In this document: positions 68 through 36,918 of the stretch, one piece after another
Numbering within the stretch: position 1 is the first letter of the stretch
Layout: each line of letters starts with the position of its first letter
DNA from: an uncultured Nitrososphaeraceae archaeon
GTDB taxonomy: Archaea > Thermoproteota > Nitrososphaeria > Nitrososphaerales > Nitrososphaeraceae
Direction: 5' to 3'
Assembly: GCA_963837175.1 (NCBI GenBank)
Contig: CAWIMJ010000030.1
Location: 1-41,808 of the forward strand
DNA: 41,808 nt
Program-made: the position numbers and the translations under genes
Notes under the pieces: generated by a model
Database searches by the model: none
Seen by the model: only the letters and a program-made list of their open reading frames with translations
Told to the model about the DNA's origin: nothing

Positions 68-1284
68 ATGCTACGTCCAAAAATAATTATCATCATGATT
101 TCTGTAGTTTTAATCTCTGTGATCTCAATAGGATATGTTATTTTTTCTTCTCCATTTAATCAATTTTCTGTTGTTGCACAGGACAATTCCAAGCCAAAAA
201 AAGTAGGTGAACATATGCCTGGTTCTAATATATTAGAAACAGCAGGAGACACTTTAGATCCTATATCACTAAGTAGCAGCGCCAGAGCGGTAGTAGATCC
301 TATGAAATATTTACGAGAATTCAACTATGGTAGGATATCTACCTTATCTAATGGAACTGTACTTAGAGAATTTACTCTTATTGCATCAGATGACAAAGTA
401 AAAGAAATATCACCAGGTGTCTTCTATAATGTATGGACATTTAATGGAACCGTACCTGGACCGACAATAAGGGCCACGGAAGGAGATCTGATTAGAATTA
501 ACTTTATAAATAACGGTTCAAAATTTCATACAATACACACTCACGGGATACATAAAGCAGAGATGGATGGTGTCTTTGAAAGTATAGCCCCGGGGGAAAA
601 TACACATATGAATTCACTGCAGAACCATTTGGAGTATTTCCTTATCATTGTCATATACAGCCTTTAGAAGAACACATATCCCATGGTCTATATGGAGTTT
701 ACATTGTCGATCCAAAGACACCAAGGCCTCCCGCAGATGAAATGGTAATGGTGATGAATGGCTATGATACAGACTCGGATTCAGAGAACAATTTTTACAC
801 AGTCAATGGAATTCCATACTACTATATGCATAACCCTATACAGATTGAAAAGAATCGTCTTGTACGAGTATATTTAGTAAATATGTTAGAATTTGATCCT
901 ATAAATAATTTCCATCTTCATGCAAATCTATATCAACTCTATCGAAGTGGAACAAGTCTGGTACCTAATGAATACACAGACATGGTAACTATGAGTCAGG
1001 GCGAAAGAGGGATACTTGAATTCACATATAAATTTCCTGGACAATACATGTTCCATGCTCATAAGACAGAATTTGCAGAAAAGGGCTGGATGGGATTATT
1101 TTTTGTTAAAGATTCGGCTGAACCAAATGTTGTTGTTGCATTGAATAACAGCAAAACAGCTAATTATCCGACTGAACTAGGTAATAATAATAATAATTAT
1201 TCTCATACTGAAAGTGCTAAAACAATAGCATCCCATTCTAGAGATGATGGTTTTGTACAATATCAATCAGGAGTAGGTAGTTAA
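68..1284 (+). CDS. Membrane-anchored two-domain multicopper oxidase (type C-like, T1 Cu in domain 1); one frameshift at the G5 run 592-596
   Basis: N-terminal TM helix, WTFNGTVPGP and HTIHTHG. Adding one G restores GGKYTYEFTAEPFGVFPYHCHIQPLEEHISHGLYG in frame with ORF 742-1284 (NNFHLHAN, MFHAHKTEFAEKGWMG; no Cys in domain 2). About 405 aa when joined. Confidence 0.9.
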
Positions 1285-1290
1285 AGAGAA

Positions 1291-2625
1291 ATGGAGATAG
1301 AACAAAATAGAGCGGACAGAAATACAAAGTCCAGCAGAAAAAAAATAATCGCTATTGCATTAATTCCATTATTGGTACTGGGTGGAATGATTATATTTCT
1401 TTTTGGCCCTGGTCAGTCGTTCCTTAACAAAGGAATATCTTTGCCTGAAATTACTATAGAAAGAACAGAATTCCAAGAAGGTAAAATTATAGCTTACATC
1501 CGTAATACTGGTCCCGAGGAGATCGAAATTGCACAGGCTGACATAAATGATCGAATAACCCCTGCTGCAATAGAACCTGGTAAGACCTTGTCAAGGTTGG
1601 CCGAAGCAAAAGTTATAATACCTTTTTCTTGGACGCCGGGGGTACCATATGAAGTAGGAGTAACTACTTCTGAGGGTACAAGGTTCAGCAAGGGCATCGA
1701 CGCTGCTGCCTTAGCGCCAGTTCCAAATGTAGCACAGGCATCATATTTTGCAGTAATAGGTGTATACGTAGGAGTTATACCAGTGTTGATAGGTCTTCTC
1801 TGGTTTCCATTCATAAAAAGACTGAGTACAAACAAATACAATTTCTTCCTCAGTCTTACTGTAGGATTGCTGGTATTTTTGGGAATAGATGCGCTAGTAG
1901 AAAGCAACGAAATTACCACAGAAAATATTGCAGGAGCTTTCAACGGTCAGGTGTTGATTGCCATGATAACAATTCTTTCGTTCTTAGCGTTGTTATATAC
2001 ATCTGAAAAACTCATTCAACGGGCTATAATGAAATCTGCTACAAACTCGAAATCTCCTTTGCTAGTATCATCCTCCTCCTATTCTCCTGATGCTACTACT
2101 ACACAGCAGCAACAACAACAAATGATAAAACCTGTTGCAATAGCGTTGATGATATCAATAGGAATAGGATTGCATAATCTTGGAGAAGGCTTGGCAATAG
2201 GTGCTGCTGTTGTACTGGGAAAAGTTGCACTCAGGTACTTTTCTAATAATTGGATTTGCATTACATAATACTACGGAGGGTTTGGCAATAGTAGCACCAA
2301 TGGCCAAAAGTGGCAAAGTCATGATACGAAAACTAGTAGCAATGGGCTTGATAGCTGGCATTCCGGCTATAATAGGAACATGGATTGGAGGATTTCTGTA
2401 TTCTCCCATTGCCGCAATAATATTCCTGTCTATGGGTGCTGGTGCAATATTTCAAGTGGTATTTTCTATTGCTTCTTGGATGACAAAAAATAAAAATAAA
2501 AAAATAATAATAATAATAATACTGCTGTTGACGGCGGAAGAAAGACATTGTTAAGTACATCTATGATTGCAGGATTTGTAGTAGGAATGGCAATAATGTA
2601 TGTAACGTCGTTGCTGGTATCATAG
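1291..2625 (+). CDS. ZIP family divalent metal permease with N-terminal extracytoplasmic domain; two compensating frameshifts (~2232, ~2500)
   Basis: IGLHNLGEGLAIG and FALHNTTEGLAI ZIP metal-binding helices lie in adjacent frames. The terminal helix SMIAGFVVGMAIMYVTSLLVS* returns to the original frame and ends at 2625. Confidence 0.88.
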
Positions 2626-2689
2626 TCTTGAGTCTTGATAGGTGCTATGATCAGATAATGGATATTGTAGTGAAATATTATAATAGTAG

Positions 2690-3217
2690 GTGAATGAATT
2701 ATTGTTAAATGAGTTGAAAGATGAATCGAATGCAAAAAACCATCGTCTTGAATCAATTCGTAATGCTCATAATAATGTAAAGAAAGAAGAGGGAGTAGAA
2801 GAGCGTACAGATAGAATGGAAGACTATCTTGAAGTGATTTATGAATTAGTACAGCAGAAAGGCTATGCTACCATTATAGATATTTCAAAATGTCTCAATG
2901 TCAGTTCTCCAAGTGTCACTAAAATGCTGCAGAGGCTAGATGAGAGCAGATATCTAGATTATGAAAAATATAGAGGAATCCGTCTGACTCATCAGGGAAC
3001 TGACGTTGCTAAGAATATCCATAAAAGGCATAGTGTATTGGCTGAATTTTTGAAAATGATTGGAGTAGACAAAGATATTGCAAATAGAGATGCTGAGGGG
3101 ATTGAACATCACTTGCATTCAGAAACTTTAAAAAAATTAGAAGAATTTGTAAAGACTGTAAAGAAGAACCCTGAATTTATACACACACATAATGAGTGTA
3201 GTGTAGAACCGAAATAG
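2690..3217 (+). CDS. DtxR/MntR family metal-dependent transcriptional regulator
   Basis: EDYLEVIYEL, VSSPSVTKMLQRL HTH, YEKYRGIRLT, RHSVLAEFL and DAEGIEHHL metal-site motifs. Confidence 0.93.
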   Translation: MNELLLNELKDESNAKNHRLESIRNAHNNVKKEEGVEERTDRMEDYLEVIYELVQQKGYATIIDISKCLNVSSPSVTKMLQRLDESRYLDYEKYRGIRLTHQGTDVAKNIHKRHSVLAEFLKMIGVDKDIANRDAEGIEHHLHSETLKKLEEFVKTVKKNPEFIHTHNECSVEPK

Positions 3218-3230
3218 ATTAATGCAATTA

Positions 3231-3264
3231 CATTATCACACACAATAAGTAGTGTGTGAAAATG
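3231..3264. terminator. Stem-loop just downstream of the DtxR-family gene (possible terminator or stability hairpin)
   Basis: cattatcacacac (3231-3243) pairs with gtgtgtgaaaatg (3252-3264), 12/13 complementary, starting 14 nt after the stop codon. Confidence 0.4.
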
Positions 3265-3588
3265 ATATAGTAATAACAGGAATTACAGACATTTATTTTA
3301 AACAATAATTCTACTTTAGAATATAATCAGATTCCAATAACTGTTCATCTTATGGGTAAGAAAGTTCTTGGCTTAATGATAAATTCAGAAAAGACTGGAA
3401 GAAGACTGGAAGACATTTTGCTAGTTCTAATGAGCTGTTTGGTACTTTAATTACTGGAACAGGATTAAGAAGACACAGGACTTGAGGATACAGAATTATT
3501 ACCACTACAAGATGACAAAAGCAACAACAATAACAATATGGAGATGAATGAAACGATGATGATGATGGCGCCTCATAGTTGAGATGTG

Positions 3589-3738
3589 TCATTCTCTTTT
3601 TCTAACTATAACTATCAATTTTTCCTTAACTGTTGGAATGCTTGTTCTTGTTCCCCTGATAACTGCCGGAAGATTTTCGTCATCTTCTAAAAGATGTTTA
3701 ATAATGATGATGTCTGTATCATTTAGCTGATATGGCAT
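3589..3738 (-). pseudogene. Degenerate Lrp/AsnC-type HTH regulator N-terminus
   Basis: Hand translation MPYQLNDTDIIIIKHLLEDDENLPAVIRGTRTSIPTVKEKL resembles the LDxxDxxILxxLxxD...TxxSxPTVK AsnC HTH start. Truncated at 49 aa. Confidence 0.4.
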
Positions 3739-3846
3739 TGCCTAATTTACCTATACGCTGCATAAATACGAATATCTTCATTATTAATCAATTTTACATT
3801 TGTAAAGTCTACTTATAATAAATGATAATAACAATCGATACTCAAT

Positions 3847-4194
3847 ATGTCTACAAAAGTACTCCAGAATCAAAAATATCAGAGTTGTATAGATGCGTGC
3901 AATGGCTGTGCCGAATCCTGTGAACTATGTGCTACCTCTTGTCTTAGAGAGCAAGATGTAAAGATGTTAGAAAGGTGTATTCAACTAGACCGCGACTGTG
4001 CTACTATATGTTGGGCAGCTTCACAATTTATGTCAAGAGATAGCGAATATGTGAAGCAAATCTGCAATACTTGTGCAGAGTTATGTGATGCATGTGCTGA
4101 AGAATGCGAAAAACATCAGCGTATGGCGCACTGCAAATTATGTGCACAAGCATGTAGGACATGTGCTCAAGAATGTCGTAAGATGAGTGGCTAA
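3847..4194 (+). CDS. csp3: Cytosolic copper storage protein, Csp3/DUF326 four-helix bundle
   Basis: 115 aa with 19 Cys in CxxC/CxxxC spacing (CIDACNGCAESCELCATSC, CIQLDRDCATIC, HCKLCAQACRTCAQEC). No signal peptide. Confidence 0.9.
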   Translation: MSTKVLQNQKYQSCIDACNGCAESCELCATSCLREQDVKMLERCIQLDRDCATICWAASQFMSRDSEYVKQICNTCAELCDACAEECEKHQRMAHCKLCAQACRTCAQECRKMSG

Positions 4195-4358
4195 AGTCAA
4201 AAGGTTGGGTTAAGACCAGCTAACATTTCTATTTCTTTTTTATATCATAGCCTTATAGCAGACATAAGCTTGTTTGATAAAAATAAAAAATAATATTTGG
4301 TTTTTTAAGATCTTTGTTTCCCTGTTTTGATTCTTTTTATTATATGCTGATGATATTA

Positions 4359-4718
4359 TTATAGACTACCTTGAGCAGCCTGTGCATGCATCTTTGCACC
4401 TTCAGTATCGCCAGCTTGTAGAGATTTCATTGCCTCATCTACGTGCATCTTTGCGGCTCCTTCTGGTAGAACCTTATCAGCTTCACTCAAGTGCATCTTT
4501 GCACCTGCAGTATCGCCAGCTTGTAGAGATTTCATTGCCTCATCTACGTGCATCTTTGCGGCTCCTGGATCTCCTACACTACTTGCTGCAGCGGATAGGG
4601 GTGATGATACAAAAGCAATAGGGCCGCCGCTATTTGTCATTATCAGTGTCCAAACTCCAAACAATACAGCGGTAATAATACCTACTGTATATCTTGTTCT
4701 AATACTTGTAGTCATCAT
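4359..4718 (-). CDS. Exported small helical protein with four AKMH motifs (internal 35-aa duplication)
   Basis: N-terminal hydrophobic signal/anchor followed by GAAKMHVDEAMKSLQAGDTxGAKMH twice. Likely start is the ATG at 4718. Confidence 0.8.
   Translation of the reverse strand: MMTTSIRTRYTVGIITAVLFGVWTLIMTNSGGPIAFVSSPLSAAASSVGDPGAAKMHVDEAMKSLQAGDTAGAKMHLSEADKVLPEGAAKMHVDEAMKSLQAGDTEGAKMHAQAAQGSL
4387..4566. repeat. 75-bp intragenic direct repeat (4387-4461 and 4492-4566), period 105 bp
   Basis: Copies differ at one position (4402 t / 4507 g). Confidence 0.95.
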
Positions 4719-4847
4719 ATAAATACAGAACACTATTTGATATAATGGTTATAACTATATTCTTTGATATGGAAGCAAGACTGAGATAATTGGGCATATT
4801 AGAATCTGTTAATGGTGCTGCTGGTGATAATAATAGTTAAGAGAACA

Positions 4848-5204
4848 TCAAATCAATCTTTTTTTGATAGTTGTATTATTCTTATCTTTTAATTGTTCTT
4901 TTACTATTTCAGCCAAGTCACCTATTGGTAGTGGCTTACGAGCAAAACATTTGACGGTTACGTTAGGATTTTCTTTCAAAAATTCTTTATACTCAGTATA
5001 TTTACTGGCTGTTAAAAAACAAACCTTGACCTTATTGTCTCTCTTTTTTATTTCTCTATAAAATTCAAAAACATTTATTTTTGCCATTTTAATACCCAAG
5101 AGTATAAGGTCATAGAAATTAGATTTAAAACTAGATAATGCTAGTTAAGGACTATCAAATGTATCACTTCAAATCCTTCATCTTTTAGTGCAACCTTCAC
5201 ACTT
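4848..5204 (-). pseudogene. Stand-alone response regulator (REC) pseudogene
   Basis: VKVALKDEGFEV / TFDSP*LALSSFKSNFYDLILLGIKMAK...KVKVCFLTA...RKP. It has an in-frame TAA and a frameshift, and the phospho-acceptor Asp is replaced by Gly. Paralogous to 34564-35025. Confidence 0.8.
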
Positions 5205-5497
5205 ACCAATTTGAATATCATCTGTGCTATGCTTTGCATAACTGACAGTTTGCAGAAAATCTCTAAGTGATGCTGTTTCATTCATTCATCGTTAGTATAA
5301 TTCCAAATTATTTAAGTCTAAATGTATTCTATAATTTCAAAAGGTAAGAAGGGACTGTTAAACTGTTGGCTGGCTTTCATTTATGCGTAATAAACTATTT
5401 CTCGTCATCAGATCCTTGTCAAATGGCCGTCAGATACCCATCATATTATTATGATTATATAATATAATTTGCAAAGATATTTTTGTATAAAATAACC

Positions 5498-5809
5498 ATG
5501 AAGAATGTTGTCGTTAGTATTGATGGAATTATGTCGATATGCGATGGATTTGGTATTGAAAAGCGACTTTTAAATTATCCAGGCATACAAAGTATTGAAG
5601 CCAACTTCCTTTCTGGCACAGCTACAGTAAAATATGACGGGTCAAAGGTAACATTGGAAGAGATCAAAAAACTGCGAAAAGTAAATATCTGGCGTAAGAC
5701 ATCAACAATGCATCAAATAAACACAGACTATGAAGAATATGGCTTTAAGCTTTCAATTACGCGAGGTCTAATGAATTACTTTTTGGCTTTTTTTGATTTT
5801 ATTAGTTGA
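5498..5809 (+). pseudogene. HMA-like domain, probably the truncated N-terminus of a P1B heavy-metal ATPase or a degenerate CopZ
   Basis: MKNVVVSIDGIMSICDGFGIEKRLLNYPGIQSIEANFLSGTATVKYD fits the HMA ferredoxin-like fold with only one Cys. The tail is unrelated and overlaps the opposite gene. Confidence 0.65.
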
Positions 5810-9402: not shown

Positions 9403-11275
9403 TCAAGCAATTGTTATTTTTTCTCCATTAAACTTAGTGAAATCGAAGGTATGTTTCTCTTCATATATAACTTGTTCTTGCCTAAGTAATTCTATTGCAA
9501 CCTTCTCACCAAGCAGGATGGACTCATAAAAGTCGCTCCAATAGTGAACACCCGCAAAATTCCTACCAAGGCCAACGTTACCAACTAGCTTGTTTAGTTC
9601 ACCACCCACTGTTAATTCGTCTTTGTCTGAGCCATGGAATCGTTCAAGCCTTGTACCGGCTTTACTTGGTATAAAAGCATTGGGGAGGACAAATGTCTCG
9701 TCAAAGTATGCCTTTAGGATTGTTGCCATAGCGCCAGAGGCAGTAGCATGACCTGCACCATAAGATGGATGAGGCGGACAGCCTTGAGGAAACGCCATAG
9801 GTAGCAGAAATGAATCATTTTTCTTAATCTCTGATTCATCAAATACATTAGATTCGAGTAATTCACGCTTGATTGGGTAGTCTTTTTTACCAGTCTTCTG
9901 ATTATGAATAAGTCCTCCAAATTCCTCAGGCCTTAGTCTTCTATGTACATAATATTTTTGGAACCATACTGCCCTCATTGCAAAAGGTAACACTTGGTTG
10001 ATAGCGAAAAGAGGAGTAAAAGGTCCAAAGTTAAACAATGCATCCTGGGTACGTGAGTCTTTGTATGGGTCACCGGCATGAAATGGAGCACTGCCTCCTC
10101 GAAGTATGGCTGCTGGATCAGGTACTACTCTCATACAAGGAACTTCTTGATGTAATAAGACCCAGGTTGCGATTGTAAATTCCTGGGAGGGAAGATCGTC
10201 GTATTGAACCCAATTGGCTAAATCTCGTCCATAACGCATAAACCGTGGGGTAGTATCGTATTCATTAGAACAAAATTCACCGCTTCTGGGATCAAAACCA
10301 TTTTGTACTCTTAGCCATTGCTTAAAGTCAGTAAGATGATCACTTCCTTTCTTTAGGGTTAAAATTCGTTGGTCCATACGATTACCCCATCCAATTATCA
10401 CCCATCCATCTTCTGGCTTTAGATCAAAAGCCGGGATCTTGGTTCCCTGCAAAGCAAATTGAGAGACGTATGGCCCCTTTTGTGTTCCTGGCAAATTAGG
10501 ACGGAAAATGGTATCTGGAGTGACTTTACCGTTTCTTTTAGGACCATGGAAATTACGAAAAGATGACAAGTCGTCTGCTGCCTCGTTCAATCAGCTTGCT
10601 ATCTTCATATTCATTGGTATTTATATCCCGCGCTAGTGCCATCCAGTACATTTCAGCCATTTCGCCTGCACCCTCGATTGAATCAATTCTAGGAGCAGGT
10701 GGTATAGCTAGTCCAAATGGATCAGGACCCTCTAGAGGAAAAGTCAATCCTCCAACAGGATTAAAGAGCTTGAGACCAGAGGCCCTAGACTCATCAGCCA
10801 GCTTGACCCTTTCCCAATCTTCAAACTTGCCACTCCTTGCTGCTCTGAGGAAGGTTTCATACGCTTCTCTATCTACCTCACCTAATTTGTTATGAGGTAA
10901 CGCTTTACTATAATTAGCAATGTAGGTACGATGACCATTCTCACGATAATCATCTTCCTCACCGTTGTTTGGGTGATCCGGCCATGGTATACCATAGGTC
11001 CTTTCAGCAGATCTTTTACGTATCTCAAAGCCCATTCTTTTACGCTCTGATTCACTCATTGGAGGGGTACTTGTAGAGCGCCCTCCTCCCGATGCAAAGG
11101 CAGATTGAGTATTACTACCGCCACCACCATTTCCTCCCATCTTAAAGAAACCCATTCCACCGAGCGCTAGACCTGTACCGCCCCAAAATATGGCTTTTAA
11201 AAAGTCCTTACGTGTAATACCGTTACTGTCTGTTGTATTACTATTGTCGTTTGATGTAATATTTCTGTCTGACAC
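9403..11275 (-). CDS. Vanadium-dependent haloperoxidase (bromoperoxidase-like) with Tat-type signal; single +1 frameshift at ~10585-10590
   Basis: WFQKYYVHRRLRPEEFGG, PPHPSYGAGHAT and GRNFAGVHYWSD vanadate-site motifs. The N-half has YSKALPHN and EMAEMYWMALARD. Signal ITRKDFLK plus h-region plus AFA. About 623 aa when joined. Confidence 0.92.
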
Positions 11276-11516
11276 TCCTTTGACAATTCAATAAATGTTA
11301 TAAAAGCGTTGTTATCGATCGGTAATATCATATTTCTTCAAACATATTAACAAGTATATGGCATAAACACTAATTACTATCCTTTTTTTAGTATTGTTTC
11401 CAAAATAGGAAACATCTATAGTTTTTTCACATTAGGCATAAAGTAGCCATGAATTTTCATAACAAAAATAATATTACAATGAGGATCAGAAAATAACAAA
11501 AAAATTAAAGTTGTTC

Positions 11517-11870
11517 TTATGCTCTAGTGTGGCTTTTATTAATTTCTGTTTCAATGGCTAATCTGAGCTGATCATCGTCTTTATCCGTATAATCAATTCC
11601 TAGAGTATCGGCAATTGATTCTAGCTTTTCTCTACTTGCACCTGCATTTGTAGTAGATGAGCCGGATGTTCCCGCATTTTTCATTTCACGAAGTTCTCTT
11701 TTTGCTTCAATTCTAGCCTTTTCAAATTCTGAAGTAGCTTTACCGAAACCTCTTGCAAGATCTGGGATTTTCTTTGCACCAAAAATGAGAACTACAACGA
11801 TTATAACAATAAATATCCACTCAAAGCCTGAAGGTATCTGCATCAACATATTTATAGGTAATATTTCCAT
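11517..11870 (-). CDS. tatA: Twin-arginine translocase subunit TatA/E
   Basis: EWIFIVIIVVVLIFGAKKIPDLARGFGKATSEFEKA. Confidence 0.95.
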   Translation of the reverse strand: MEILPINMLMQIPSGFEWIFIVIIVVVLIFGAKKIPDLARGFGKATSEFEKARIEAKRELREMKNAGTSGSSTTNAGASREKLESIADTLGIDYTDKDDDQLRLAIETEINKSHTRA

Positions 11871-11902
11871 TCAACATTCATATTAAAAGGAATAATTTAA
11901 GG

Positions 11903-11930
11903 CTTTTCCTTTAATACTTTTCCTTTAATA
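11903..11930. repeat. 14-bp tandem duplication (cttttcctttaata x2) in the tatC-tatA spacer, near-inverted to tattaaaagga at 11881-11891
   Basis: Seen directly. Confidence 0.8.
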
Positions 11931-11934
11931 CACT

Positions 11935-12783
11935 TCACAAAATCTCAAGAGTTTTCTTCTTCTCTCTCCTTCTAATTGCCAGCATACCTAGAAGATATAT
12001 GATAATCATAGGCAATGCGAGAAACCACATAGTAATTCCACTACCATCTGGAGTTATCAATGCACCAAAAATCACCAAAATTATAACGGCATACCTAAAG
12101 TTCTTTCTCCAAAATTTTGAATCAACTGCACCTGTCAGAGATATAGCATACATTACAACAGGAAGCTCAAAGGCAATTCCAAATCCTAAGAAGAATTGCA
12201 ATACAAAGGAGATAAAATCGTTGATATTAAGAAACGTCTCAACGCCTATGGCGCGACCGTAATCATATAGAAAATTAAGAGTAAATGGAATTACTATAAT
12301 ATAAGAAAATAAAATACCTATTATAAATAAAGACACAGTAGGGACAAACACATTCATTATTCCGATTTTTGTGTGTTTTCCAATCGCAGGTGAGATAAAT
12401 CCATATATTTCTTTGATAATTATTGGCATCGAACCAATAATGCCAATTAATAGTGAGACATACACATTAGCAAAGAATGCTTGCCCGGGAGCTGTTTGGA
12501 TTAGTTTTACCTCTGGTGGAAGCAGTGTATTTTGCATATATTTGGTAAGCTGAAGAGCAAAGTTTCCAAAGGGATCAGGATAAGGATAATACAATTTTAG
12601 AGTGATGGCATTGTTATTGTTATTGTTATTACCATCTAAATCAATTGTAATCGGTTTTATACCTATACTCATAGAAAAAATGGTAATAATTACAAGAGAA
12701 ATTACAATATGGAGTATCCTTGAGCGTAGCTCATTAATATGCTCAAATATAGACATCTCAGTAGACATAACTTCGTTTAACAA
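11935..12783 (-). CDS. tatC: Twin-arginine translocase subunit TatC
   Basis: EHINELRSR, FISPA, FGIAFELPV and ITPDGSG motifs with about 6 TM helices. Confidence 0.95.
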   Translation of the reverse strand: MLNEVMSTEMSIFEHINELRSRILHIVISLVIITIFSMSIGIKPITIDLDGNNNNNNNAITLKLYYPYPDPFGNFALQLTKYMQNTLLPPEVKLIQTAPGQAFFANVYVSLLIGIIGSMPIIIKEIYGFISPAIGKHTKIGIMNVFVPTVSLFIIGILFSYIIVIPFTLNFLYDYGRAIGVETFLNINDFISFVLQFFLGFGIAFELPVVMYAISLTGAVDSKFWRKNFRYAVIILVIFGALITPDGSGITMWFLALPMIIIYLLGMLAIRRREKKKTLEIL

Positions 12784-13027
12784 ACAAAGAATATATTATG
12801 AAATATAATAGTGTGTCGTTTGATATATCATTAAAATAAATTAACTTTGGCAATGATGTTATAATTAATATAGTTCTAGAGTCTTTCTTGATACACTCTA
12901 TATTGTGAAAAAAAGAACCTATCTTCTTGACAGAACCCTGATATTTTCACCATGAGTTATCATCGTGTATCTTTCTCCTTTTCTTCAATCTGACTTAATA
13001 TATGAAAGGCTTCACCTGACAAATTCA

Positions 13028-13517
13028 GGGAGCAAATCAGCTAAACATAAACTTAAAAAGATATCAGGTAGAAAAATGTTTCAAGAAAGATACAAATCAC
13101 GTTATATCAAAAGCCATTATCTCAAACGCTAAAGGCACAACTAGAGATATAGTGTCAGAAGACTTGAAGAATATTCGTCAGAGTTTAGAGCAACGGTTAA
13201 GGATAAAGCTCACAGACATTCAAATTGGGCATTTTGATAACTCGAGATTTTATAGAATATAAAGCAAAAATTAGAGTTCCTTTGAAGATAATAAGTTCAA
13301 AGAATACTTCAAGAAATGTCCTCAATGTAGATACATAGACCAAAGAAATAGAAAGACACGTGATACTTTTGAATGTCTACAGTGTCATTATAGCGAAATG
13401 TCTGATTACCTGGCTCGCTTTGAATATAAGAAATCGGGTTCTAGTCAACGAGCTTATTGTAACACCTCTTTTCCCGGTAGTTACAAGCCCCTTTGCCTTA
13501 GCAGGGGGTTAGTTGAC
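13028..13517 (+). mobile_element. tnpB: Decayed IS200/IS605 (IS1341-type) tnpB with preserved right end
   Basis: GSKSAKHKLKKISGR / FKKDTNHVISKAIISNAKGTTRDIVSEDLKNIR (RuvC-II E), HSNWAF** ...IEYKAK, CPQC...FECLQC Zn finger, DYLA/LNIRNR. Ends with acaagcccctttgccttagcagggggttagttgac. 5' part missing, with stops and frameshifts. Confidence 0.85.
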
Positions 13518-21743: not shown

Positions 21744-22920
21744 CTATGAGAAGGTTTTCATAAACGTCGTCTTTTCTAATAGGCTTTTACATTTCTCAGG
21801 AAAAATAGTACCATCTATATTGCGTTCCTTACCAACTATTAGTTGGTTTAATGTTTGATCACTTGAAGGATGCCAGTATAATAGTTGGTTTTCTTTATCC
21901 CAATTCATCTTTTTACTAGTGGCCCATACTCGGAATTCTGGCGAATAATGAAAATGATAAGGTATGTATATTATAGTAGGAGCATCTACTACAGCTCCCT
22001 TTAGAATTATTGCACTATACTTACTTTCTATATCAAAAAAAAGTAATATTGGTTCTGCTGAGCTTCGGATTGGATATGGACGTGCCATAACGTCCAAATT
22101 TCGATGTGTTCTATTCGGTCCAAGAATAGAATAGTCTTCTAAATTCCAATTATCCTTTCCATCTGCCGTATGATACAGATCATAGTTCCAGTAAGTTGCA
22201 TTGATTAGATATTTTTCAATTTGAATAAAATGTAGATTTATGTATTCTCGTATATTTGTCGATTCTTGAAACCCACCGAATTCTGTTAGAAATGGAATAA
22301 GTTCACGTTGAGATGCAGCTTCAACTAATTGTGCAAATATTTGTGGAAATTCACGCTTAATCCTGTACAAATTCTCAGGTATTTTTAAAAATGATCCGGC
22401 TGTGGACTCAAGATTATAATAATGAAATGATAAGACTCCACGATGTCTAAGAGTTTCAAGCGAGGCAGAATCGCTTGGTAGAGAGCTATGAAGCTGTATA
22501 CTGTTTATTTTACCTTCAATCATAGTATCACGTATGACGCAAGTGGAATGTGCGCTTTATATCGAAAAGCGAACGTCTAGATCCAGATTTATCACCGTCA
22601 GTGGAAGATACGGTCCAATCAACTCTTGGTTCAATGAACAAAAATATATTTTTATCATATCTTCTTAGTTCAGATTCTACATTGGTATAAAATTCATAGA
22701 GAAACTCCCTCAAATTTGTGAGGAGGTATTCCCACGGGATGCGGCTCGTTGAACGGTTCAATACCCAGTATGGCAGGATGTCCAAGACGATTATTAAAGG
22801 ATTTGAAAAACTTTACTGTCTGACCGATAGTTTTTTCTAGATGAGTACGAAGAGAATAATTTGAAAGTCCAGCTTCATGATTTGTTAAGTCATTATTCCA
22901 AAAAGATCTTTATAGTTTTT
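21744..22920 (-). pseudogene. Glycoside hydrolase family 5 (endoglycoceramidase-like), 5'-truncated and frameshifted
   Basis: Hand translation gives FWNNDL...AILGIEPFNEPH (acid/base Glu, 22742-22750), FIEPRVDW, SFHYY, FLTEFGG (nucleophile), YWNYDLY...DNWNLEDYS and RPYP. Confidence 0.8.
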
Positions 22921-23138: not shown

Positions 23139-24791
23139 TTGAAGACGAAGGCATCGTTCTTCTCATCATCATCGTCATTATTATCTTCTTACATCTTTCG
23201 TATTAATCCGACTTTAATTAAATATACAATTGTACCATCCATACCTTTAATAATTATAGCAATTCTATCTACCAATCCTAATACTTGGGTAGCATCGGAT
23301 ATTGATCATTTTTATTTTGAGATCATTGCAGTAATATTTGCTGCAATAGTGGCATTCTACTGCATAACGCGTGCTTATACATTAAATGATAAATTCACTC
23401 TTTTTATTGGTATAGGATTTCTTACAAGTGCTTTAATTGATTTGATGCATGCCATAATCTCGTACAATGCTACGGATGATCCACTTTTTCTCGGATACTT
23501 TATACCACAGACTTGGTTTGCAGGAAGGACATTTATCAGCGCTATGATGGTAATAGCAATCACAAGATTTGCCGTAATACCAAAAAATTCCGAAGGGTCG
23601 TCCCGCAGAACATTCATAGCTTATTTATCTTTAATTGTGATTTTGGCAGTAAGTGTATCTCTTGTCTCATTTCTTACAATTTTTCCAGGAGCATTAATTG
23701 ATTTTCCTATACATAGACCATACGAAATTCCTTCGCTAATACTATTTTCAATCGCTTTGATATATTTTTACAAAAACCAGCTTCATCGCAGAAATGATGT
23801 CTTTTATAAAGGAATTCTAGGTTCGCTAATAATTGTTATTTTCAGTCAAATTATAATGTCTTATTCCCTTTCATTTTTTGAGTCTGGACACAATGTATCC
23901 CACATACTCAAAGATACAAGTTATTTTGTTATAATTATTGCTCTTGCATTATCAAGTATACAGTACAATAAGAGATTGAGAGAAAGAGAGAAAGAAATTC
24001 GTGTTCAATATGAAAAACTAAAAAAAACAGACAAGGCCCAGAAGGAGTTTATCAATGTGGCCGCTCATGAATTACGAACTCCTATACAGCCAGTACTTGG
24101 CCTGTCAGAGATTCTTCACTCTAAAATAAAGGACACCAAACAACGTGAATTATTAGGTGTTATAACTAGAAATGCAAAACGATTACAGCGTCTTTCAGAT
24201 GATATATTGGATGTAACAAGAATCGAAAGTCAGTCACTAATACTAAACAAGGAGCAATTTAACCTAAAAGATGTATTATCAACTGCGATACAAGATCATA
24301 AAATTGAAATTGAAAAAACTAATAGTAACTTAAAACTCTTATACGAAAATGTTGATAATAATGATGACAATATTTTTGTTGTAGCAGACAGAACCAGGCT
24401 GATACAAGTTATCTCTAATCTGATAAGAAATGCCATTAAATTTACCAAAGAAGGTGTCATATCGATTAATGCAAGAAAAGAAACAACTGATTATGATAAT
24501 GACAATAATAATAATAATAACCAAGTCGTTATTAGTGTAAAGGATACTGGTTCTGGTATAGATCCAGATATTTTGCCAAGACTTTTTTCAAAGTTTGCTA
24601 CAAAGTCTTTTGAAGGTACTGGACTTGGATTGTTTATCTCAAAGAGCATTATTGAAAATCATGGTGGCAGAATATGGGCAGTAAATAATGCTGATGGGAA
24701 AGGAGCTACATTTAGTTTTAGTATTCCAATAATTTCGGCACAACAAGCAAATATAAAATTAGTTGATTGTTCATATGACAATATGATATAG
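23139..24791 (+). CDS. Membrane sensor histidine kinase with MASE3-like N-terminal domain
   Basis: About 8 TMs (HFYFEI...IDLMH), H-box AAHELRTP, N-box NAIKF, G1 DTGSGI and G2 GTGLGL. Confidence 0.93.
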   Translation: MKTKASFFSSSSSLLSSYIFRINPTLIKYTIVPSIPLIIIAILSTNPNTWVASDIDHFYFEIIAVIFAAIVAFYCITRAYTLNDKFTLFIGIGFLTSALIDLMHAIISYNATDDPLFLGYFIPQTWFAGRTFISAMMVIAITRFAVIPKNSEGSSRRTFIAYLSLIVILAVSVSLVSFLTIFPGALIDFPIHRPYEIPSLILFSIALIYFYKNQLHRRNDVFYKGILGSLIIVIFSQIIMSYSLSFFESGHNVSHILKDTSYFVIIIALALSSIQYNKRLREREKEIRVQYEKLKKTDKAQKEFINVAAHELRTPIQPVLGLSEILHSKIKDTKQRELLGVITRNAKRLQRLSDDILDVTRIESQSLILNKEQFNLKDVLSTAIQDHKIEIEKTNSNLKLLYENVDNNDDNIFVVADRTRLIQVISNLIRNAIKFTKEGVISINARKETTDYDNDNNNNNNQVVISVKDTGSGIDPDILPRLFSKFATKSFEGTGLGLFISKSIIENHGGRIWAVNNADGKGATFSFSIPIISAQQANIKLVDCSYDNMI

Positions 24792-35510: not shown

Positions 35511-35857
35511 TACATTTCTAAATATATCGAATGAAAGTGATATCTACAGAATAGAAGAGTCAGAAAGCTTTCATAACAGTATAGATGATATTGCTGAATG
35601 ATAAATGAACCTTCGTATAATTAGTAGAGAATTTCTTATTAAATTTAATTGACCAGCCAATATTATTGGCTGTTTATGGCTAAATTATTTTATCTATGTT
35701 TGCTTGTTATTTCAATGAATCAATTACTGTTTGGGCATACTGCAGATATTCTCAATATTTATTTGGAATTGAATTTATTATGGAACATTTCAGTTTAGTG
35801 TTGACATTGAAATGTGTATACAATTATATACCATGTATAATAATTTTATCATTTGCT

Positions 35858-36918
35858 TTGAGCTTATATGAGAAACTTAAAGTAAAGACAGAAGAACTAG
35901 ATTCAAAGACAGAAGAGCTAAACAAAACAAACATGGCTCTTGCAATAGCTAATCAGCAGATTGAATCAAAAATATCAGAGCAAAATGCTTCTAATAAAGC
36001 GTTATTTGAATCAAACCATGAGCTTGCAGAAGTCAATAAAGAGATTGCAAAGAATAACAAAAGATTTGCATTAACAAATAAACAATATGCAGAGCTCAAT
36101 AGAGAATTGACAGCAGTCAATAAAGAACTATCGTTAGCTTATCATACAATAGAACAACAGAATAAAATTCATAGAGAATTTATCAATATTGCAGCTCATG
36201 AGCTAAGAACACCTATTATGCCAATATTAGGAACAGCAGAGTTATTAAAAAGTGAAATTGAAGAAAATTCTTATTTTAACAGGCAACGTAGTAATATGAT
36301 AATAATAGCATTCAAATTGAACAAATAAAAAGTAGGATTGAAGTCATTATCAGAAATGCAAAAAGATTAGAAGGGCTTGCAAATAGTATATTAGATGTTT
36401 CAAGAATTGAAAGTCAATCATTGATATTAAATAAAGAGCAGTTTAGCCTAGAAGAATTACTATCAAGTTTAATTAGTGAATATAATGAGAGTCAAGAAGG
36501 GAAGAAGCTGTTGTTTGAGTTCAAAGAACACAGAAGAAGCATAATCGTTAAAGCAGATAAGTATAAGATAGCTCAGGTTGTCTCTAATTTAGTAAACAAT
36601 GCTTTTAAATTTACAAACAAAGAACAAGAAGGAATTATATCTATTAGCTGTCAAAGAAAGGAGGAGAAGGATGGCCATAATAATACTAATGACTGTGTCC
36701 TTGTTCGTGTTAAGGATACAGGCGAAGGAATAGATCAAGAAATATTTCCAAGACTATTCTCAAAGTTCACTACTACTTCCAAGTCCTCTAATGATGGAAT
36801 CGGTCTAGGATTATTTATTTCAAAAGCTATTGTAGAAGCGCATGGTGGCAAGATATGGGCTGAGAATAACTCAGATGGAAAAGGTTCCACCTTTGCATTT
36901 AGTTTACCAATAGATTAA
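35858..36918 (+). CDS. Soluble coiled-coil histidine kinase; one frameshift at ~36270-36300
   Basis: Heptad-rich N-terminus and AAHELRTP. The alternative frame continues IEVIIRNAKRLEGLANSILDVSRIESQSL into ORF 36421-36918 (NAFKF, DTGEGI, GIGLGL). Start inferred at TTG 35858. Confidence 0.88.

Follow-up and report, generated by a model that had tools for sequence, protein, structure and literature searches.

Does an ammonia-oxidising archaeon export a vanadium haloperoxidase (VHPO), and do the twin-arginine translocation (Tat) genes found beside the haloperoxidase gene serve this enzyme alone? The question is raised by a contig of an uncultured Nitrososphaeraceae archaeon (GCA_963837175.1; CAWIMJ010000030.1) on which tatC and tatA precede a gene for a predicted VHPO. 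The window, the whole 41,808-nucleotide stretch of DNA that was analysed, is the entire contig C30 of a 58-contig, 3.81-Mb genome with a completeness of 91%. The host is an ammonia-oxidising Nitrososphaeraceae archaeon: an archaeal amoA gene is located on contig C56 of the source genome (e-value: 2.7e-118), and the closest relatives carry the name Nitrososphaeraceae in record titles and protein names. This check of contig taxonomy upholds the soil ammonia oxidiser that the original prediction, made from the DNA sequence alone, had proposed as host. Near-identical DNA was traced in public runs, 14 of the 24 listed containing at least half of the sampled words, and eleven of these 14 are labelled soil metagenome. 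The three co-oriented genes described in the prediction are all real and lie on the minus strand:

11935..12783, minus strand: tatC (Pfam TatC; e-value: 3.5e-52; above the TIGR00945 cut-off), the family-wide core copy, detached from purP
11517..11870, minus strand: tatA (Pfam TatA_B_E), akin to the core tatA that other genera carry next to purP
10553..11275, minus strand: 5′ open reading frame (ORF) of the VHPO gene, residues 1 to approximately 231, GTG start
9403..10590, minus strand: 3′ ORF of the VHPO gene with the catalytic domain, overlapping the 5′ ORF

We favour, with moderate confidence, the reading that an acquired group 1 VHPO gene lies behind relocated core tatCA genes, and that its product is exported by the Tat system and would oxidise halides with hydrogen peroxide (H2O2) outside the cell. 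The locus represents an established enzyme family that is unexpected in this host, present genus-wide beside relocated core tat genes, and not a new kind of system.

Relocated core tat genes beside the haloperoxidase gene

The tatCA genes of the window are the core copy of the family, moved from an ancestral purP locus. The window TatC is placed within a 39-row clade holding all purP-linked and sole copies (quick tree, no outgroup) and is mostly 52-64% identical to the sole TatC of single-copy genera, compared to 45% to the second copy in its own genome. Similarly, the window tatA falls in a 16-row group with the purP-linked core tatA (support: 80/86). Of 25 loci from other genera, 10 have tatC-tatA leading into purP, while no tat gene precedes the purP gene of the source genome (contig C46); tat genes are also found apart from purP in other genera (9/20 core-type loci). 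The second tatC that the prediction had suggested looking for elsewhere, as a housekeeping copy, does exist, on contig C12, and is joined by a second tatA on C50, but it is the window copy that is the core one. TatC proteins of the C12 type form a separate clade, encoded beside moaA in eight of 18 loci, and it is the C12 paralogue that has the look of a truly dedicated Tat copy. A dedicated accessory Tat system would take the form of an extra TatC paralogue with the core copy kept elsewhere; in the window, the TatC groups with the core and no tatC is found at purP. Other Tat cargo encoded in the source genome comprises a Rieske protein, a bicupin and an unknown protein.

Several observations on the wider Tat complement can be added. 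The second tatC (L181, G000:C12:165001-173500) adjoins molybdenum cofactor genes and a sulfite-oxidase-like gene. The bicupin with its Tat signal (L180:397-1713, G000:C52) belongs to the oxalate decarboxylase family (TIGR03404, below cut-off) and, speculatively, may supply H2O2 outside the cell if it is an oxalate oxidase. A 338 amino acid protein (L183:281-1297, G000:C50) matches no Pfam or NCBIfam model and begins with an evident twin-arginine signal.

The order tatC-tatA-enzyme is conserved in four of the six other genomes of the genus (G017, G030, G041 and G063). In G072 and G052 the contig stops short of the upstream genes, and the linkage is kept in all four other genomes of the genus that can be assessed. 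The same order occurs in four of eleven archaeal-type metagenome loci; three of the remainder are cut short and four are paralogues without tat genes. Core tatAC genes with no conserved link to the enzyme had been considered beforehand: the genes are indeed core, and the linkage is nevertheless conserved.

The enzyme is encoded in all seven genomes of the genus, in 23 of 151 family genomes, spread over 9 of 18 genera and with several copies fragmentary or broken, in one of 194 genomes of the other families of the order, and in none of 300 further genomes sampled from the phylum. An unpublished genome, G077, enters only the denominators of this family count, of the TatC identity comparison and of the Mn-catalase count given below. 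In trees, the archaeal proteins are scattered among bacterial ones in four clades or more, some bearing a signal and others not. Archaeal monophyly is weakly rejected (approximately unbiased test, p 0.033; quick tree of 30 rows, the tested group having been defined in the light of a previous tree), and a single archaeal acquisition was set aside on this test. Several acquisitions are likely, although not firmly so; no donor is named. The enzyme gene has a guanine-cytosine (GC) content of 42.8%, compared to 36.6% for long ORFs (3% of 897 are as high), while tatC and tatA show no raised GC content. The sole match outside the family (L135:1498-3129, G153) is an enzyme with an RR signal that groups with the copies of the genus g13, and the closed single-contig family genome G032 (L058:9430-11103) encodes a signal-less enzyme of another clade.

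Close paralogues occur in two variants at four loci (L152, positions 951-2811; L153; L155; L156), none of them preceded by a tat gene. A frameshift at a T run disrupts the signal peptide in all four, which has further decayed in one of the variants, with an in-frame Met just behind and an intact catalytic part, so that they apparently represent an exported enzyme turned cytoplasmic; the signal-less paralogue form is shown by a 38-member cluster of mostly 580 amino acid proteins. In genus g13, a tatA gene stands head-to-head with a signal-bearing enzyme of another, separately acquired clade (G026, L047:1097-3345; G037, L199:5993-7651), and the tatA of G026 is a third copy besides two core ones. 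Export hence appears to matter for the enzyme, as the unlinked paralogues lost their signal and g13 recruited an extra tatA. An extra tatA is also located beside an epoxide hydrolase gene, encoding an unrelated Tat cargo, in G078 (L166), and extra tatA genes head-to-head with Tat cargo in G026, G037 and G078 are possibly a general habit of these archaea.

The alternative that survives best, and to which we give somewhat less than an even chance, is that the adjacency of tatCA and the enzyme gene is a historical accident, a single rearrangement inherited without selection. It accounts for one event in one genus, agrees with the tat genes detached from purP in other genera and with the signal-bearing copies of G012, G116, G078 and G153, which have no adjoining tat gene, and can draw on the epoxide hydrolase of G078, which means that pairing with tat is not special to this enzyme. 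It fares less well with the second, independent tat-enzyme pairing in g13 (G026 and G037 probably reflecting one event) and with the loss of the signal in the unlinked paralogues (two variants, probably one event).

A group 1 vanadium haloperoxidase homologue

On the evidence of its sequence and modelled fold, the enzyme is a homologue of the group 1 VHPOs, the Corallina/Ascophyllum/Acaryochloris type as grouped in the available text of PMC13198595, and the long algal and cyanobacterial type named in the prediction is borne out. All ten PDB sequence matches are VHPOs of algae and Acaryochloris (best e-value: 4e-82). An AlphaFold model based on a 68-row alignment (predicted local distance difference test, pLDDT: 86) matches the two-bundle fold of approximately 600 amino acids over its whole length, with template modelling (TM) scores of 0.75-0.78 for the 11 listed chains, as against 0.10-0.16 for acid phosphatases and at most 0.23 for other haloperoxidase groups. 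In the numbering of P0001, an intact natural relative of 623 amino acids, K440, R448, H502, H509, R571 and H577 are invariant in all 68 aligned proteins, and the predicted vanadate ligands K440, R448, H502, G508, H509, R571 and H577 align to the PDB chains, H577 being the axial, covalently bound His. These residues lie in three motifs:

9928..9966, minus strand: motif 1 with W437, K440 and R448, invariant in 68/68 proteins and aligned to PDB chains
9748..9771, minus strand: motif 2 with H502, A507, G508 and H509, in letters the same as in the Acaryochloris enzyme
9544..9564, minus strand: motif 3 with R571 and the axial H577, both invariant in 68/68 proteins and alignable to PDB chains

The motif 2 Ala, which is Ser in Corallina, matches the characterised Acaryochloris bromoperoxidase and is thus no defect, while W437 occupies the place of Corallina Arg397, Trp being the norm among the top homologues. 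A homodimer model scored 0.66, compared to 0.00 for the best control, with contacts in at least 71% agreement and a pLDDT of at least 80, a mark that 21 of 30 solved pairs and none of 23 single chains attain; the score may do no more than echo the solved dimers.

The bromoperoxidases of Corallina pilulifera and C. officinalis (PDB 1UP8, 8VH0, 7QWI, 1QHB; Arg-to-Trp mutant 7QVW) align over the whole length from residue 77 (identity: 33-34%; TM: 0.77-0.78) and share the K/R/H/G/H/R/H ligands. The archaeal enzyme differs from them in its host, its putative Tat signal, the Ala for Ser in motif 2, a native Trp in place of the wild-type Arg397 and an insertion near residues 376-395. AmVHPO of Acaryochloris marina (PDB 5LPC, 8Q20-8Q22; TM: 0.75-0.77; identity: 30-31%) has a letter-identical motif 2, but the archaeal enzyme carries Trp for Arg425 and a putative export signal. 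Vanadium bromoperoxidases I and II of the alga Ascophyllum nodosum (PDB 1QI9, 5AA6; TM: 0.75-0.78; identity: 27-30%) share the fold, and the available text of PMC11871015 gives the Ascophyllum enzyme a Trp at the matching second-shell position. Uncharacterised bacterial group 1 homologues from Acidobacteriota, cyanobacteria, Gemmatimonadetes and Actinomycetota (at least 6600 matches; identity: 42-49%) have the motifs in common, and many of them carry Tat motifs; the archaeal copies form several clades among them. None of six bacterial-type loci (L037-L040, L160 and L161) contains a tat gene. Class A non-specific acid phosphatases, PAP2 enzymes and the fungal and streptomycete vanadium chloroperoxidases share the three-motif vanadate/phosphate site, with TM scores of only 0.10-0.23.

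It is unlikely that the protein acts in soil as an exported phosphatase, or as some other vanadium-free enzyme, on a haloperoxidase fold. The supply of vanadate and bromide in soil is uncertain, the motifs are common to PAP2 enzymes, and some sources label relatives 'phosphoesterase'; phosphate also fills the same site in crystals (available text of PMC11871015). Set against this are the whole-length group 1 fold and second-shell residues, including the bromoperoxidase-type H502, and the name haloperoxidase borne by every solved member of the group. Neither the fold of approximately 250 amino acids nor the above-cut-off PAP2 match that mark class A acid phosphatases and PAP2 enzymes was found (TM: at most 0.16), and NCBIfam holds no model for the enzyme.

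Reading frame and export signal

The predicted enzyme of approximately 623 amino acids, with three vanadate motifs and a Tat-like signal, is present in full, but it is split in this assembly and intact in P0001:

10581..10582, unstranded: extra base (+1 frameshift), missing from runs X1, X2 and X15 and from locus L149

Comparison with public runs and relatives suggests that the gene is very probably intact in its normal state, encoding 623 amino acids, and the break at approximately 10581 is an assembly error or a mutation private to the strain. P0001 differs from the two ORF halves at 11 of 623 positions, one of which is the start codon, and in its cluster of 23 members, of which 14 others are listed, 12 of these 14 continue in frame across the frameshift junction. 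Four of the 24 runs were examined at this site; X17 has no contig across it, and the extra base is absent from all three that bridge it, namely X1 and X2 (DNA, two studies) and X15 (RNA), as it is from the near-identical metagenome contig L149. Every bridging public run speaks against the case, allowed for in the prediction, of reads confirming the frameshift. The dN/dS ratio of the enzyme gene is 0.13-0.47 (28 pairs). A young pseudogene in this strain would account for an extra base that stands in the assembly outside any long homopolymer, and would have parallels in the broken enzyme copies of G078, G015, G074, G031 and G041 and in other split genes of the window, but with the base missing from three bridging runs and L149 and only 11 positions separating the two halves from intact P0001, we regard it as improbable.

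The amino terminus contains two elements of a putative export signal:

11198..11215, minus strand: twin-arginine motif T-R-K-D-F-L (RK variant), residues 21-26, followed by a hydrophobic stretch
11093..11104, minus strand: signal peptidase I motif A-x-A (A-F-A, residues 59-61) at a putative cleavage site, A-F-A occurring in 23 of the top 30 homologues

Among these 30 homologues RR is found in ten and RK in nine, the eleven without a motif being fragments, late starts and signal-less forms, and the enzyme copy of g13 has a sub-threshold Pfam TAT_signal match. The Tat-like signal noted in the prediction is conserved within the genus, and we infer that the enzyme is exported by Tat and its signal cleaved.

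Spacer, transcription and allele exchange

The spacer between tatA and the enzyme gene holds three conserved elements:

11490..11510, minus strand: T-rich run directly after tatA, a candidate archaeal terminator, T-rich in 9/9 aligned spacers
11396..11413, unstranded: candidate operator consisting of two inverted 6-bp arms set 6 bp apart, its core conserved in 9/9 spacers
11299..11310, minus strand: promoter motif resembling a B recognition element and TATA box (BRE/TATA), 24 nt before the enzyme start, its 12 bases invariant in 9/9 aligned spacers

The conservation of the last element suggests that a separate TATA promoter probably drives the enzyme gene, and together with the T-rich run after tatA it makes co-transcription with tatCA improbable. 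The palindrome was tried as the mark of a regulon and rejected, with three genome matches per pattern compared to 0-1 in shuffles and no common target type. In soil RNA runs X15 and X17, from two studies, much of the enzyme gene and also tatA are covered by contigs (0-3 differences in each long X15 contig), although such contigs give neither strand nor level and DNA carry-over is possible. Neither run has a contig covering tatC or the spacer between tatA and the enzyme gene, a gap to which no weight is given. Between G017 and G041, DNA identity drops from 91-96% over tatCA to 71-85% inside the enzyme gene. Trees of tatCA and of the enzyme conflict on L151, L157 and G041, and L151 and L157 combine sister tatCA genes (approximately 3% apart) with enzyme genes of different allele families. 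Given the drop in identity and the conflict between trees, the unit is not co-inherited as a block. Two divergent enzyme allele families alternate behind near-identical tatCA and spacer (L043 and L044; L151 and L157), an allele exchange at a fixed site.

The self-contained module of the original prediction, in which a dedicated TatAC would be co-transcribed and co-inherited with the enzyme, has the order conserved in four of four assessable genomes of the genus and four metagenome loci and the second tatC (C12) and tatA (C50) in its favour, but it is very improbable and its 'dedicated' TatAC largely refuted, as TatC belongs to the clade of purP-linked and sole copies with the C12 copy in a separate clade, no tat gene precedes purP on C46, a separate TATA motif stands before the enzyme gene, alleles are exchanged independently of tatCA (L151 and L157), and other Tat cargo such as the Rieske protein depends on the same Tat system.

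Proposed mechanism and role

We propose that the ancestor of the genus acquired a bacterial group 1 VHPO gene, which now lies behind core tatCA genes that, as synteny and trees show, were moved from the purP locus. Transcription would probably start from the enzyme's own TATA promoter, and the protein would fold in the cytoplasm, probably as a dimer according to the model, before export by the ordinary Tat system and cleavage of the signal after residue 61. Outside the membrane, by analogy with the family, vanadate would be bound at H577 and H2O2 would oxidise Br-, I- and perhaps weakly Cl- to hypohalous acid, which may halogenate nearby organic matter or react with more H2O2. Apo-haloperoxidases bind vanadate from solution, so that loading of the cofactor before export is not needed; vanadate can bind after export, and cytoplasmic phosphate competes with it.

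As the role of the enzyme, we estimate an external H2O2 sink to be slightly ahead of chemical defence or signal quenching, neither reaching an even chance, with other functions clearly behind; organic halogenation would be a by-product under each. Disposal of H2O2 by the enzyme is plausible: ammonia-oxidising archaea (AOA) are described as sensitive to H2O2 in the available texts of PMC8972015 and PMC13577086, and that of PMC4926216 records proposals that soil haloperoxidases serve in oxidative-stress defence and antagonism. A Mn-catalase gene is present in the source genome, in four of the six other genomes of the genus and in 68 of 151 family genomes, and an external sink could be useful even with this enzyme. 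In g13, Mn-catalase occurs in none of five genomes with a signal-bearing enzyme compared to 17 of 20 others (Fisher p 0.001), an exclusion that amounts to only two independent pairs once a TatC tree, covering 19 of the 25 genomes, is taken into account (sign test p 0.5). With two pairs, a frameshifted enzyme copy in G078, a broken catalase match in G048 and co-occurrence of both genes in the genus of the window, it is a hint only, and the enzyme as a substitute for Mn-catalase was rejected on the number of pairs and this co-occurrence.

Several points weigh against the proposal of an exported haloperoxidase. Haloperoxidase activity of the archaeal members is predicted from family likeness, the nearest characterised enzymes are only 27-34% identical, and the Pfam PAP2 match lies below cut-off (22 bits compared to 27.2), its motifs being common to PAP2 phosphatases. 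Halide specificity is not readable from W437, since Arg-to-Trp gave opposite results in two enzymes, raising chlorination in Corallina but not in Acaryochloris (available text of PMC11871015). The signal of P0001 is RK, not RR as in the Tat consensus S/T-R-R-x-F-L-K, and has no Pfam TAT_signal match. The presence of Mn-catalase implies a weaker need for another H2O2 sink, and the frameshift was judged from public runs and relatives, not from the raw reads of the source genome.

Genome setting of the window

The gene-poor DNA that had been noted at the borders is present, but it is ordinary for the genome and not special: ORFs of at least 100 amino acids cover 59% of it, and 151 of 2568 gaps measure at least 1.7 kb. 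Flanks of this kind, typical of the source genome, are ruled out as island borders. A mobile-element remnant lies upstream of tatC:

13302..13505, plus strand: decayed TnpB-like (IS200/605) remnant outside the unit, with stops, frameshifts and a weak Pfam Cas12f1-like_TNB match (e-value: 0.007)

Further broken genes of the window comprise a frameshifted glycoside-hydrolase-like gene (21744-22906), a split histidine kinase (35696-36918) and the TnpB-like remnant taken at its wider extent (12965-13505). A metal-handling cluster (68-5809) includes multicopper-oxidase pieces, a ZIP-like protein, a DtxR-like regulator, DUF326 and an HMA domain, and the protein encoded at 1291-2268 has a copy of equal length and start on contig C36. 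A MASE3 histidine kinase gene (23139-24791) lies approximately 10 kb from tatC here, and directly upstream of it, head-to-head, in G017, G041 and G063.

Possible implications for archaeal halogen metabolism

In the open haloperoxidase literature searched for Nitrososphaera, Nitrososphaeraceae, Nitrosocosmicus, Thaumarchaeota and AOA, no paper on an AOA enzyme was found, although gene tables or subscription journals may mention the gene, and the available texts of PMC11879582 and PMC8972015 describe no AOA haloperoxidase. NCBI automatically labels relatives, e.g. HYX56191.1, as 'vanadium-dependent haloperoxidase [Nitrososphaeraceae archaeon]', and with so large a family, and with such labels already present in Nitrososphaeraceae metagenome-assembled genomes, the finding is only moderately surprising. 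Methanosarcina is listed as having VHPOs in the available text of PMC13102585, which we read as a mix-up with V-nitrogenase because a nitrogen-fixation review is cited, while the Thermococcus phosphatase described in that of PMC3508851 belongs to the superfamily and is not of the group 1 type. In the portions available, a 2018 review (PMC6299022) states that archaea were not yet known as producers of chlorine compounds, and a forest-soil survey (PMC4926216) holds halogen cycling to be mainly bacterial.

Beyond the locus itself we suggest, tentatively and as the less likely case, that soil AOA repeatedly acquired VHPOs fitted to Tat, and that the genus secretes an active, possibly chloride-oxidising enzyme that turns soil H2O2 into hypohalous acid. 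The intact natural sequence P0001 makes the question testable by standard assays. If true, this would be the first halogenating enzyme shown in an archaeon, and archaeal nitrifiers would directly produce organohalogens in soil, as well as haloamines next to their own ammonia. Soil AOA would have a second means of coping with H2O2 in addition to Mn-catalase, and an exported haloperoxidase in every sampled genome of the genus would link the nitrogen and halogen cycles.

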